Assembly (NCBI RefSeq): GCF_057098645.1
Contig: NZ_JBXSPU010000003.1
From: a plasmid
Strand: one strand, 5' to 3'
DNA length: 64,000 nt
Within the stretch, counting starts at the first letter, position 1; every line of letters starts with the position of its first letter. A program made the position numbers. Shown here one piece after another: positions 1 through 6,000 of this stretch.

Positions 1-3000
1 TAACGAGCTAATTCAGCATTTTCACCTCCGTAACTGTGCGTATATTCATATAAGCTTTTTTTAAGCTCTGACCTGAACTCAATAGCATCAATACCATGAG
101 TGGCACATGTAAGCTCAAATGATTTCGACATATACCACCGTGTTTCGGCTTCAAGAAGCGGATTCACGGTTATGTTACCGAATTCATCAGTGGAATAGAG
201 TGATTTTGTAATGACGAGATGCCTTACGTTTTCCAACGACTCTTCCATTGCGACGACGTATAACTGATATACATCTTCAGGGGCCCAGTCAAAAACCAGA
301 CCACCTAACTCCGCACTGTACTCTTCTAGAGTGAAGAGATAATCAGTTTCCGCAGCAAAACTAATGTCATGCAGAATTTGATTTTTGAGTAGTTTGGGAC
401 AATTACCAGGCAAAGCAACATCTTCCGACACACTAGGCTCCAGTTCCGGGCCTGAATGTTTATCTTCTGATTGAATACTTTGTTGTGCGGCTATTGCATC
501 ATTTATATAGTCAAGTGGAGACTCAACTATAGTTATTATTTCTTTTTCCTCTTCTTCAAAATCGAATATAGAGAAAAAATCCATTTGCTTACTGCAAAAT
601 GCAGTCGGCCTTATTTTTTGTTTCATGGGATCTCCTAAGGGAGAACTCCCATGAAGGGATTTCTCCCCTTTTGGGTGGTTTAAATGTCAGATCTGTCTAA
701 AGCTACTTTGCCCAAAACCCTTAGGAGGTTTAGGTATGTGAGCTAACTTACTTGTTGCAACTACTCTCATGTAGTCAAGAGGATGCTCTCTCCCTTCCAA
801 TGTGATGGTATCCACAACAAGATAACCGGAGACCATTAACTCATCACCTTGATTTATACCAGTGAAACAGCCTGAATACATCTCTGGTGATACTTTGATT
901 TGAATCGAAAATTCTCTCTCAGTAATTTCACCATTAATTTCAGTTTTCATTCTGTTTTTGAGCTTTATCAATAACCCAACGTTTCCGCTAGTCATTTCTT
1001 TCTCCATTGCACTGATAACTATCCCGGACACTTTTACTTCATTAACATATTCAAGATATGACATTACTTCTCTCCTCAATTTAAGCAAAGAGAAGCCCCG
1101 TCAGGGTTTCCCCTTAACAGGATTAGATAAATTTGTTTACAATGAACATAAATGTCATCATGGCAATAACAGAAAAGCCAAACAGCTGACCAAAAGATCT
1201 TGGTGCTTTTACCGTTTTAGCGTTATTGATTTGTGCCAAGAGTTCATCAACTGTCGCTTGCCGTTTATCTGCTTTCATTTGATAATCTAAACATTGCTCC
1301 TCGCGTTTAGTGAGAAACTCAATTTTCGACTTGATAGCATAATCCCAGCCTTTGGAATCGAAAACGCTCAATTCACTAAAGGTGTGTAACATGAGTTCAT
1401 CAGGAAAACCTAACTCTTTCATTAATGGGCGAACGGCTGCATACATTGCATCTACAGTTTCATAATGTGCTTTGGTCACTTCATTAAATCGATTACGCAA
1501 TGCTAATTTCTCGCGCTTCTCAATAATTTCAGAAACCCAGGCAACCAACTGATCATTTTTTAACTCTCTGGATTTAGCGAGTGAATAATCAAGGTTATCC
1601 ACATCAAGAAATGTGTTCAACCCGTACTTTTCAAACTCTTCATTTAAGAACTTATCCAGATCGGCTAAAGTTTTAAACATTGGAATTGCAGGTGCTTCTT
1701 TGAGAAGTGTGTAAGCTTTCTCAAAGTCAATTGGATTGACAAGAATTTGCTGCATTTCCACATGATAATAAGTAGAAAAAGCAGAAAGCTTTTGAGCCAG
1801 CATTGAAACTGATTTCAAAGAATTCAGTTCAATTATGGTTGGACCATCTTCATTCATAATAACAATAAGGTCATTATCATGCCCTGAATAAACATTCAGA
1901 GAATCCAATAACTTCTTGTTAACCACCTTATCCATATCTGGGATCAGATCAGCGAAGGCGATGAGAAGAGCTTTACTGCGTGCTTTACTTTTAGACATTT
2001 GGGGTCACCTATATATAGTAAGAAGGAAGGAATCATTAAATATCCCAACACAAAGGCAAAGCCTGTCATTCATCTCCCGTAAGCTATGAACCGCCTGATT
2101 TATACTTTCTGGCATTAGAAGTACGCAACGAAAATAGCTCAATTAAGAGCTAAGTTAGTTACGATTTGGTAAATTCGATTGTCCTTTTTCAGACATGGGA
2201 AAGGCACCAGCGACAAAGGTGACATTTTGCCGGTGGTGCCTTGCAGCTTTAGAAAGCTGGCCGCTTTTCACGGCTGAATATGCGCTTAACGCGCAAAGTA
2301 ACTTTTATAAAGTTACTTGAAATGTGGGAGCAATAAATTCAAGCTCATATACGTTATACTACACGGGTTCATTCCTGTAAATAAAGAAATCAAAATTATT
2401 CTGTCAAAGGGGATTCTGTTCTACTTTTCGCAGCCTCTTTCAATTTATCTTCAGCACATTCGCTTAAAAAGAAAGACGGATCACCGTACCACATTACATG
2501 CAGCTGTTGCTCTGCTCGTGTAAACCCAACAAAAAGCAGTCGTCTTTCTTCTTCAATCGCCTCCTGCCCCACAGACCGCTTACTTGGAATCTGATCTGCA
2601 TTACAACTCATAATAATTACATTTTTCCATTCAAGACCCTTCGAACCGTGCAACGTCGATAAAACTACTTTATCCGGTGTATATTCCTCATCCTTCTTCT
2701 TTGGCCCCAGACACATCGCCGCAGCTCGATTTATCATATTTTGCCAGCCTGTCTTTTCGGCCCATTGCTTACAGGTATCCAGCGCAATTCTGCTCAGTGA
2801 TGGTGATCCTTTCTGCGTCCTCATTTTTATCGACGACAACTCCATCCACTTAATCAGATTTGCGAACCTTTTTTCTATTTCAACCTTTTCCCGAGTCTCC
2901 TGTGTAAACCGGGTGAAGTTTGAATGAAGCGTTCTTGTTTCCAGGGAACTTTCATTCGGGATGTTCAGTTCACCAAAAGTTACTTTTCTTCCTTTCATGC

Positions 3001-6000
3001 TCAATGCTGTCTGGTCCAAGACCTCTTCATTTTCACCGAAAAGCGCCAGCACCCTCTTCATTAACCGGACATCGTTGGAATGTCGGAAGAATGCCATCAA
3101 ATGCAATACATCGCTTGTCTCCTTTTCATCCCAAAATGACTTCCCACCATAACGAAGTACCGGCTGCTCTATCAGGCTTTCAAGCTGATCGAGATGTGCA
3201 TTACCTCTGCTGAGGATTGCCCACCCAATCGGGTCTTGGTTAATCAGATTGAGAATGCCTTGAATTTGCTCATCCATATCAACATATGAGCGGAAATGAA
3301 CTTTTCCCCCACCGCCCTTAGCTGAACGGAGATCTTTAGCGTATCTGTAAACATTTTTTTCAATCAATGCCCCTGCTACCTTCAAAATCTCTGGTTCACA
3401 TCTGAAACAAGTATTCAAATAAAATATGTTGGGCCTGAATTGTTTTTCAAACTGCTGGAATATTTTGACTCCACCTGATGCCCTGAATGAATAAATTGCC
3501 TGATCATCATCCCCAACGATGCTAGTGTTAACACCTGCCCTCGTATGTAGTGAGATCCAGGCATACTGAATCGAGTCGGTATCCTGAACTTCATCTACAA
3601 CTAAATGTGTCAAGTTAAGTGGCTGCATTTTCCCCGAGTACATCTGGCCCACAACAAAACGTGAGAGTGCATTCAAATCTGCAACGTGGTCTTTCTGACA
3701 TATTGCCTGATAGGTGTTGAACAAGTGGATTTGTTGCCGCGTATGGCGAACTGAAATGATGTCCGTATCCATTTCCCTTCCAATCGCGTCAATAGCAAAT
3801 TCTGCATCCGGGTATCGAAAAGGCGCGCCGGACTCCTTCAATGCCCTGTGAATTACAGAACGCTGTGCCGAGCTAATCAACATCTTGCCCTTCCAGTTGA
3901 CCATATCCAGTTGCATCCGGATAAAGCCGTGGAATGTATTGACCAGCACCCTATCCTGGTCTTTCTTACTTAATCGACGTTTCAGTTTTTCAGCCAATGA
4001 ATTTGTTGCTGCACGGGTAAATGTGACCATCCCCACTTTGGCATAAGGGAACTGCCTGAGGATAGAGATCACCGCCTCTATCATCGTGAATGACTTTCCA
4101 GATCCCGGTGCTGCAATAACCATATTATTAGCATTTGCATTTTCAATGATGACCCTTTGCTCATCTGTTGGTTTACCCATAAAAGCCTCTGAATATTTAG
4201 TCCCCTTTATTATACGATTTAAATTTGACGGATTTTTCTTTACAAGACTCATTTTTGGTCACTTCATATTTTTCCATTTTTTCTTCATTTAGGTTGTTTG
4301 AGAAACTGGCGAGTATGAAATAATGCTTCTAGACATAAAATTCATTCAAAAAGGGTCATAAATGAAAAATAAACGGTTTGTATCCTTGGTTTCAGCTTTA
4401 GTTGCAAGTGCGTCTCTGGTAGGGTGTGCTGGGAACGCAGGTCAATCCCCTAACTCCGCCCAGCACAGCGACACTCATGGGCTCTACTGGCATGCTAACG
4501 CAAAAGATTCTGTAGCCAAAAATGCTTACTCTCTGGCCGGGTTTGACGTTTCTTTTAATGAGGAAACTGTTCAGCCAGGTGGTGATGCAGATAACTTCCT
4601 TTCCAAACTCTTGATTAGCGGCTCTATGGGATATGTGACAGGCGGTCTCAGCGGATTAAGCATTATGAGTTTGGGCTCTCTATACAGCTCCTCTGACGCC
4701 GAATACATTCAGGTTAACCAGTATGTTGTCTTTGTCCCGAACCCGAAGAAACTTCCTTATAACGATGAAAGCCTAGTTCGTGCCGGTGCTGCGTATGTTT
4801 ACAATCACACCAAAGAGTCACAGGTAATGCTCGGATTCAACCCATCGAAGCAAAGTGCAGCTCTGGCGTCCTGCAAGATTGATAGGGCGGTCATCAATAA
4901 ATGGAGTACATGCGAGCTCACTTCAAAACCAGCTCCTGACGTAATGCCAACTAATTCCATGTACAGCTTCCAGGCTATTCGCCCTGCGACTGGAACTGAA
5001 ATCCCCCAACTTAATCTACCTGCCGGTGAGTATTCAGTTATTCGTTACGTGTTCATTCCATTTAAAGGCAATGAGTCAAGCAATAATTTCTCAGGTATTA
5101 TTTTCCGTTCTGATAGTCCAAAGTTCACCATGCCAGGCGGCGCAGCTGCTTCAATTAATGGGAAAGACTATTACCTCTTCTCTGGTGAGTATGGTCAGAA
5201 AGGATTCCCGGAAAAAACTCTGAAATCAAAATAACAAAAGGGGCTTTACAGCCCCTTTTTTTTAATATTTTGGTATTTCCTTACCTGTAATTGGATCTAC
5301 ATAAGTTGACCCAACTTCACAAATCGCAGGGCGTGGAAGATAGCTACAGTCTACGTTCTCCTCTTTAATGGCCTGAGCGTTTTCCTGTCTGGCTTTTATC
5401 ATATTCTCCTCTCCTCCCATTGCATCTTTTGTTCTTTCTGATGGAAGTTGATAATTCTCGTTTTTAAATGGCAAATTTGCTGTTATTGACGATTCTGAGA
5501 ATGTAGCGTACTGGTCCGGTACTTCTCCGACCTGAACAGCATCGTTAATCCATTCTGTTAAATCAATCTTGTCAAAATCTAACTTTTGGATCTGCCCTAT
5601 TGATAAGCCAACGCAGTTTGAAGTAACCGGGTCTATTCCAAGCTGCGGGTAGGCCTGCTGCATAATAACGCGAGATAACATTGAATTGTAACAGCACATG
5701 TCTGTTGCTTTTTTAACACATTTCTTTGTAAATCCCAGATTCAGATATTTAACACAACGGTTTGTATCCAGTGTAAAACAGGATTTCTGATTTTTGTGAA
5801 TAGATGCTTCCATTTCTTTTTGATCGCAGGCCACCAGCATTTCAAGCAGCATTTTTGTGACTTGATATGCCGTATAAATCCAGCCGATTACATTTAATGC
5901 AAGCATAAAGTTTTGAACAGCAGCAGAAAAGACTATTTCTCCACCCGTTGTCGCTACATTTTTAAATACGAAGTCTCGAACTGTATCGGGAAGCAGGTCA

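Follow-up and report, generated by a model that had tools for sequence, protein, structure and literature searches.

A TrhI helicase gene and the first genes of a low-temperature-induced operon, separated by a structured RNA, at the distal end of Tra2 in an IncHI1 plasmid

The 64,000-nucleotide stretch of plasmid DNA analysed here (contig NZ_JBXSPU010000003.1, assembly GCF_057098645.1; hereafter the window) begins with four minus-strand genes, which encode a UvrD-like helicase and, beyond a gap of about 400 bp, a tail-anchored protein, a possible OB-fold protein and an acidic protein. What kind of module do these genes form, and do they belong together? A preliminary description, made from the sequence alone, treated positions 1-4252 as one gene string that matched no nameable conjugation module, and suggested an accessory DNA-processing or a defence/anti-defence role. 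We found that all four open reading frames (ORFs) are present at their described places and are real genes. They lie at the distal end of the transfer region Tra2 of an R27-type IncHI1 plasmid and make up two units, namely the helicase gene trhI alone and the first three genes of a nine-gene operon. Between the two units lies a structured RNA, supported by covariation, that seems not to have been described.

The identity of the region was established by comparison with known plasmids. Positions 1-4400 showed 100% identity to more than 200 IncHI1-type plasmids, typed MOBH/MPF_F, at least 80% of this interval was covered by 280 records, and R27 differed from the first 9 kb of the window by 4 mismatches. 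We took gene names from the RefSeq annotation of an identical plasmid, pYPE10-190k-tetX4 (locus L001; a window coordinate is the L001 coordinate minus 12000). The helicase gene (2396-4180, minus strand, as are the other features below unless stated) is annotated as 'IncHI-type conjugal transfer helicase TrhI', and its product is 100% identical to R27 WP_000517883.1, with the same neighbours. It is followed by the genes for p291 (1123-1998, 291 amino acids (aa)), p125 (687-1064, 125 aa) and p328 (1-626), the last of which has its N-terminal 208 codons, out of 328, inside the window and extends past the window start; the p291 and p125 proteins are also identical to their R27 counterparts. R27 ORF numbers were assigned via gene order, with R0005 as trhN, R0003 as trhI and nine genes running from p291 to a Toprim gene. 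This gives R0002 for p291, R0001 for p125 and R0210 for p328, a correspondence reached by inference but tight.

On the other side of trhI lies trhN (5262-8438), annotated as a TraN homologue for mating-pair stabilisation, with Pfam F_T4SS_TraN found in related loci, and upstream of trhN are the annotated genes trhU, trhW and trhF. With these genes alongside, the region is the far end of Tra2, and trhI is its last named gene. The helicase is therefore part of a conjugation region that can be named, contrary to the preliminary description. As an object the locus is already known, since it is R27 backbone, trhI has its name and the cluster was reported in 2020. The four genes are an annotated backbone piece and, as a discovery, ordinary; the useful part is a sharper map, to which we add the operon boundary, a domain and fold analysis, the leader RNA and a comparison of synteny across lineages. 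IncHI plasmids disseminate multidrug resistance (mcr-1, tet(X4) and the multidrug resistance of typhoid among others) and are the model for temperature-sensitive conjugation.

The division into two units rests on operon structure and on published expression data. p291, p125 and p328, spaced 58 and 60 nt apart and thus as tightly as had been described, are the first three genes of the operon R0002-R0204. Past the window start follow a MoxR-type AAA+ gene (AAA_5), a small ORF, a DUF3150 gene, a VWA gene, another small ORF and a primase-like DUF7146-Toprim_3 gene. R27 arrays had reported this nine-gene cluster as low-temperature-induced and of unknown function (PMC7366339). At 25 °C, the transfer-permissive temperature for R27, compared with 37 °C, induction was 9.2-fold for R0002, 8.9-fold for R0001, 22.9-fold for R0210, 17.0-fold for R0209, 20.2-fold for R0208, 10.7-fold for R0207, 7.7-fold for R0206, 8.7-fold for R0205 and 5.3-fold for R0204, whereas R0003, listed as 'trhI, DNA helicase', changed 1.13-fold (PMC7366339). 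In the derepressed htdA mutant at 25 °C, R0002-R0204 rose 19-61-fold and trhI 8.7-fold (PMC7366339). These results indicate that the nine-gene operon belongs to the conjugation regulon; it is active at 25 °C, and the absence of HtdA strongly derepresses it. A conserved promoter-like site followed by about 330 nt of structured leader separates trhI from R0002, and the thermoregulation on the two sides differs (1.13-fold for trhI against 9-23-fold for R0002, R0001 and R0210). The four genes are therefore two separate units, and the notion of a single string was abandoned.

The gap between the units spans 397 nt (1999-2395) and is more conserved than the flanking genes. It contains the inverted motif pair pointed out in the preliminary description, with 17-nt arms at 2201-2217 and 2226-2242, as well as other inverted repeats, such as 10-nt arms at 2296-2305 and 2309-2318. 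Immediately after the trhI stop codon we found TTTACA-N17-TATAAC (2353-2380), of which TTTAC and TATAA are kept in 9 of the 10 lineages in our alignment (A10). A promoter scan of the gap did not call this site, position 6 of its -10 hexamer being C. Judged by its sequence, it is a sigma-70-like promoter candidate, from which transcription would run through the leader of about 330 nt into the nine-gene operon.

The results demonstrated that the gap holds a structured RNA with at least 8 covarying helices. The 5' part (2205-2274) forms hairpins A (2260-2274), B (2244-2259) and C (2205-2238), the last corresponding to the inverted pair already described (I1), and compensatory changes were present in helices 1-3 of A10. 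The 3' domain (2052-2200) is multi-branched with a long-range closing helix. It contains a stem CGUAAC/GUUGCG capped by a terminator-like hairpin (2135-2152), an invariant 26-nt box UAAUGCCAGAAAGUAUAAAUCAGGCG at 2092-2117, a hairpin 1 (2068-2091) with a UNCG loop, and a short hairpin 2 that ends at 2055, with a loop that reads GAAA or UUCG in other lineages. In A10, 90.5% of cells paired, compared with 30-48% in slid controls. Compensatory changes were found in 22 of 46 pairs, compared with 3-9 in slid controls, and none of 500 shuffles reached 22; the minimum free energy z-score was -5.8. A covariance model of the 3' domain (R1) found one copy in the window (2052-2200, 148 bits) and no copy in the Aeromonas, Xanthomonas or Rts1 loci described below or in R27 Tra1. 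A permissive Rfam scan of window positions 1-5400 gave no match in 1999-2395, a literature search of limited scope found no paper on the leader RNA, and a search for IncHI small RNAs returned nothing relevant.

Several other explanations of the conserved gap were considered and rejected or set aside. A small ORF at 2005-2142 is not a gene, as single-base indels in IncHI3 break its frame while the nucleotides are still conserved. The presence of G-U pairs and of RNA-type tetraloops (UNCG/GNRA) indicates RNA rather than single-stranded DNA; together with the short hairpins and the distance from the relaxase genes and oriT, these features also make a Frpo-type single-strand-DNA promoter unlikely. 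One reading makes the hairpin at 2135-2152 a plain terminator of trhI, with a new promoter (TTGCGT-N18-TATAAA) behind it. The 'TTGCG' of that promoter, however, forms a covarying helix with 'CGUAA', and lineages L014 and L015 lack the -10-like hexamer. The covarying 'UUGCG' helix thus favours one continuous leader over a small RNA plus a second promoter. The invariant box was also considered as a repeated operator, and neither the window nor R27 Tra1 contained a further copy of it. Whole-genome pattern matches in Veillonella, Blautia, Marinobacter, a Clostridiales metagenome-assembled genome and a WOR-3 metagenome-assembled genome were attributed to chance, as the flanking motif was absent.

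A second, diverged copy of the RNA was found outside the window, just downstream of the Toprim gene, where it heads the next operon (R0203-R0198). The model scored this copy at 65 bits in L014 (16046-16202), 50 bits in L015 (16198-16351), 26 bits in L016 (16302-16449) and 17 bits in IncHI1 (L001 5090-5232, minus strand). With the second copies included, 13 of 18 pairs covaried, in an alignment fitted to the model. R0203-R0198 were silent in wild-type R27 and rose 38-115-fold in the htdA mutant (PMC7366339). Between the second copy and the start codon in L014 lie a strong hairpin and nine consecutive U residues, an arrangement that hints at attenuation. We tentatively suggest, at slightly less than an even chance, that these RNAs represent an undescribed class of cis-regulatory leader with two diverged copies per IncHI-type plasmid. 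The copies head R0002-R0204 and R0203-R0198, which rank with the operons most strongly activated upon derepression of conjugation at 25 °C, and temperature or the TrhR/TrhY-HtdA circuit could gate both operons through them. Antitermination, RNA stability and thermosensing are possible mechanisms. If the leader does gate expression, it would give new access to the way in which gene expression in IncHI plasmids is tied to low temperature and mating, and this RNA and its paralogue are the part of the locus most worth following. In the same direction and on the same strand, L001 525-4415 contains four to five unannotated, paralogue-like genes of about 300 aa (292-322 aa), which presumably correspond to R27 ORFs within the range R0198-R0202.

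What, then, might the two units do? We propose, giving the idea about an even chance, that trhI and the R0002-R0204 operon form a transfer-coupled DNA-processing and establishment kit. The first unit is trhI, which encodes a complete helicase and is expressed at both temperatures, and the second comprises the promoter-like site, the leader and the nine-gene operon. TrhI would supply the unwinding that the MobH relaxase lacks, the OB-fold protein p125 would coat the transferred single strand, and the Toprim protein would prime complementary-strand synthesis. The MoxR/VWA pair would remodel a protein complex, and the tail-anchored p291 would hold part of the machinery at the inner membrane near the secretion channel. 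We infer each of these biochemical roles, as well as any effect on transfer. The earlier idea of an accessory DNA-processing module thus survives as the best functional guess.

The helicase is the best-defined component. As the preliminary description stated, its longest ORF (2396-4252) encodes 618 aa with complete superfamily 1 (SF1) motifs; the RefSeq start at 4180 gives 594 aa. TrhI matched Pfam UvrD-helicase (E 2e-30) and UvrD_C (E 8e-29) and aligned with residues 11-613 of E. coli UvrD, and its motifs are intact, with GSGKS (Walker A) at residue 26, DEVQD at 196, GDDDQAIYSFR at 223 and VGFTRA at 551. The ratio of nonsynonymous to synonymous substitution rates (dN/dS), calculated for this and the other genes against a roughly 89-95%-identical plasmid, was 0.035. 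To judge from its sequence, TrhI is a complete, stand-alone SF1A helicase of the UvrD/Rep/PcrA class, with predicted ATP-dependent 3'-to-5' unwinding. Its score of 179 bits, versus 965, lies far under the UvrD/Rep equivalog cut-offs, indicating that TrhI forms a distinct plasmid lineage.

The relaxase of R27 suggests where such a helicase could be needed. R27 TraI (MobH, 1011 aa) has a TraI_2 relaxase domain as its sole domain and no SF1 helicase domain, so a separately encoded helicase could plausibly supply the unwinding. Rolling-circle plasmids are unwound by PcrA and UvrD, which nicking initiator proteins recruit, and this may serve as a working analogy for TrhI at a relaxase-nicked oriT. 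A natural trhI knock-out was also observed, in which the gene is split in two by the IS3-family element IS1203 (E. coli IncHI1 plasmid NZ_CP029690.1, 36619-39713).

The three proteins encoded downstream of the gap are real and constrained, as shown by dN/dS values of 0.14 for p291, 0.10 for p125 and 0.21 for p328. In p291, the sole strongly hydrophobic segment covers residues 269-287 of 291 (mean Kyte-Doolittle 1.9, 19-residue window). This segment is kept in IncHI1, IncHI2 and IncHI3, and the protein has no signal peptide. An AlphaFold 2 model (pLDDT 80.6) combines a small alpha/beta domain with a helical bundle and a long helix, and ends in a helix at 269-290. p291 is thus, on sequence grounds, a tail-anchored inner-membrane protein with predicted membrane insertion, in agreement with the single C-terminal anchor noted before. 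No family match was found in Pfam, NCBIfam, PHROGs or PADLOC and no fold match for the model, and a homologue search returned 32 matches, all in IncHI-type relatives.

p125, which is 133 aa long if read from an upstream TTG, had been described as a possible OB-fold protein, and our profile search strengthened that view. A profile built from 10 diverse homologues (A8) and searched against PDB matched the Deinococcus SSB 1se8 (E 1.9e-4, positions 4-105), and SSBs were four of its five PDB matches. Within the family, one member matched Pfam SSB (E 6e-4), six members matched an OB model, and some members carry the JGI label 'primosomal replication protein N'; for p125 itself the Pfam SSB and OB matches were sub-threshold. 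Comparisons by hhalign with E. coli SSB and PriB, with the Rts1 SSB and with a three-sequence SSB alignment were not significant; of these approaches, only the PDB search with the more diverse profile reached significance. p125 is probably an SSB/PriB-like OB-fold protein with predicted single-stranded DNA binding. An acidic C-terminal tail of the SSB type (DDDIPF-type) was looked for and was not present; the C-terminus (687-740) instead carries PKPxKGFGxSSF, a non-acidic tail that all lineages conserve and that is probably a partner-binding peptide.

p328 was correctly described as strongly acidic, the full-length protein having an isoelectric point (pI) of 4.6. The full gene corresponds to L001 11640-12626, and its start in the window is at 626. 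The protein is an internal tandem duplication of two domains of about 110 aa that share W..D...Y...L...D.G..VNP...W..S.FE..G. In the AlphaFold 2 model, residues 1-76 are disordered and acidic and the repeats lie at 83-196 and 215-327. No family match was found in Pfam, NCBIfam, PHROGs or PADLOC, and a fold search against PDB and the viral library BFVD gave no match (BFVD E 0.3 or worse). A homologue search gave 12 matches, all in IncHI-type relatives, and the family comprises 29 clusters among 1.84 billion representative proteins. For p291 and p328 alike, we found no relatives outside the IncHI-type plasmid group and no fold match. The p328 gene of IncHI2 plasmid pTB31P1 has an annotated length of only 251 aa, possibly owing to a frameshift.

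Do the genes belong together? Independent distribution of the four genes was not seen. The order TraU, TraN, lipoprotein gene (opposite strand), helicase, gap of about 400 nt and proteins of about 290, 125 and 310 aa, followed by AAA_5, a small ORF, DUF3150, VWA, a small ORF and DUF7146/Toprim_3, was identical in eight IncHI-type lineages: IncHI1, IncHI2, IncHI3 and five from metagenome assemblies. This order is kept across lineages with protein identity as low as 21-33%; between IncHI1 and IncHI3, identity is 48% for TrhI, 26% for p291, 33% for p125 and 22% for p328. Outside this group, a 32%-identical helicase adjoins a Toprim gene and the AAA-DUF3150-VWA set in Aeromonas pAeme5. In the MOBH plasmid pCuR of Xanthomonas, a 28%-identical helicase adjoins the AAA-DUF3150-VWA set, with ssb and a PD-(D/E)XK nuclease gene nearby, and in Rts1 (IncT) the genes ssb-recT-exo-MoxR-DUF3150-VWA lie between traU and traF. 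A literature search on DUF3150/VWA gave nothing relevant.

Two Photorhabdus loci, from P. noenieputensis (L027) and P. heterorhabditis (L029), carry a decayed version of the region. In these loci trhI is a 42-aa remnant, no match was found for p328, AAA or DUF3150, and VWA was matched only by a fragment from its C-terminus. What they retain is the leader RNA, p291, fragments resembling p125, and the Toprim gene.

Several observations weigh against a shared, transfer-coupled function. All of the conserved linkage of the complete order lies inside one plasmid lineage, where descent alone could explain it, and the Photorhabdus loci, which keep some parts and lose others, show that the parts are separable. 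Helicases of the UvrD class translocate in the 3'-to-5' direction, whereas those linked to the relaxases of F and R388 do not, and this difference makes the partnership with the relaxase only an analogy. Neither p291 nor p328 is connected with DNA by any homologue or fold match. We also considered p291 and the lipoprotein as counterparts of SXT s063 and Rts1 Orf218 and found no sequence similarity, a result that for p291 counts on the same side. The array paper places trhI outside the tra operons (PMC7366339). It also reports that the htdA mutation raised 139 of 181 expressed genes (PMC7366339); with derepression this broad, the co-regulation seen in the mutant is weakly specific, and the temperature response is the more specific signal. 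Finally, our literature search, which did not cover the primary Tra2 mutational study, found no experiment linking any of the four genes to transfer.

The alternative that best withstands these data is linkage without shared function, in which the IncHI backbone is inherited as a block and its genes do unrelated jobs, such as maintenance, low-temperature host adaptation or nothing measurable. It would account for the finding that all loci with the full order are IncHI-type backbones, in which TraU and TraN hold constant positions, for the different regulation of trhI and the operon, for the partial loss in Photorhabdus and for the plasmid in which IS1203 splits trhI. However, the order has persisted despite divergence to 21-33% identity, dN/dS values of 0.04-0.21 show that the genes are under selection, and the nine genes act as one induced cluster. 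In addition, non-IncHI plasmids again pair a TrhI-like helicase with AAA-DUF3150-VWA, plus a Toprim gene in pAeme5. We consider this explanation unlikely.

A defence or anti-defence role, the second suggestion of the preliminary description, gained no positive support. The operon might shield incoming plasmid DNA, for example with p328 as a DNA mimic, or the helicase might be a Gabija-like part. The pI of p328 and its disordered acidic N-terminus, the expression tied to conjugation conditions and the presence of orphan, fast-evolving proteins typical of conflict genes agree with this idea, as do matches of TrhI to PADLOC GajB models (best E 9e-44). However, GajB belongs to the same helicase superfamily as TrhI and the matches reflect the generic UvrD fold. 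No GajA-type partner (OLD-type ATPase-Toprim nuclease) was present: a PADLOC scan of ten neighbouring proteins gave no GajA model match and otherwise only generic AAA similarity, and the Toprim gene found seven genes away belongs to the DUF7146/Toprim_3 type and has no PADLOC match. The acidity of p328 is the sole hint of DNA mimicry; the protein shows no sequence or fold similarity to mimics of the ArdA/Ocr type or to other known proteins, and the dN/dS values indicate ordinary purifying selection. Anti-defence genes are usually located in the leading region, whereas this locus lies about 70 kb from the mobI-mobH relaxase genes and hence outside it. In related elements oriT adjoins the mobI-mobH genes (PMC10838148). 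Taken together, the evidence makes this role distinctly improbable.

Least probable of all, to the point of being a long shot, is a plasmid-specific primosome that acts in vegetative replication or repair independently of transfer and serves restart of a large, low-copy plasmid at low temperature, for although the domain content (helicase, PriB/SSB-like protein and Toprim primase), the JGI label on p125 and induction at 25 °C, where IncHI plasmids regulate other functions too, agree with it, wild-type R27 still replicates at 37 °C, where it hardly expresses the operon, the locus lies inside the transfer region and about 35 kb from repHI1A rather than by the replication genes, and the relatives in SXT and Rts1 affect transfer and not maintenance.

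The lipoprotein gene that separates trhI from trhN (R0004, 4362-5234, plus strand, 290 aa, annotation) occupies the same position, with the same orientation, in each lineage examined. Its product has no family match. In the R27 arrays R0004 was very highly expressed, at 9779 units (PMC7366339). Between this gene and the convergent trhN lies a perfect 10-bp GC-rich hairpin (5236-5259) with T runs on both strands, which is likely a bidirectional terminator.

We finally compared the locus with known systems, returning to the proposed transfer-coupled kit and its leader. The RNA resembles structured 5' leaders of the attenuator, antitermination and thermosensing types in its position between a promoter-like site and a long conditional operon, in its many covarying helices and UNCG/GNRA loops and in the second copy ahead of the next operon, and differs from known leader RNAs in having no Rfam family match. 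Its invariant box, read from the sequence, shares only GGCGGT with the RfaH ops element and is not ops. TrhI resembles E. coli UvrD/Rep and PcrA over the full aligned length of UvrD and in all conserved motifs, but it lacks the C-terminal extension of UvrD, is plasmid-borne and is tied to a transfer region.

The closest comparison for the operon is with the ssb-bet-exo-MoxR-DUF3150-VWA block, which is common to SXT/R391 and IncA/C (PMC2791158). In SXT/R391, IncA/C and Rts1 this block has the layout ssb-bet-exo-s067-s068(MoxR/CobS-like)-s070...s073. In both cases the genes lie among the F-type mating-pair genes of MOBH elements, and an SSB-type gene is followed by MoxR AAA+, DUF3150 and VWA genes; the IncHI triad of AAA_5, DUF3150 and VWA lies just past the window start, as in Rts1. 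No RecT/Bet or lambda-type exonuclease was found in the IncHI cluster, by Pfam and NCBIfam searches for p291 and p328 and by the different domains of the other genes. In place of recT/exo, IncHI has the tail-anchored p291, the acidic p328 and a short SSB-like protein that lacks an acidic tail, with a UvrD-type helicase upstream and a Toprim gene downstream. Deletion of bet, exo, s067, s068 or s070 in SXT lowered transfer 10-fold or less, and deletion of s063 about 100-fold (PMC2791158), while bet and exo deletions in Rts1 lowered transfer about 70-fold and left the mobilisation of another plasmid unaffected (PMC10838148). The block is thus accessory to transfer and not essential (PMC2791158, PMC10838148), and these deletion results suggest that its genes have accessory roles on the DNA side and not in the mating channel. 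The R0002-R0204 operon appears to be the IncHI counterpart of the ssb-bet-exo-MoxR-DUF3150-VWA block of IncT, SXT/R391 and IncA/C.

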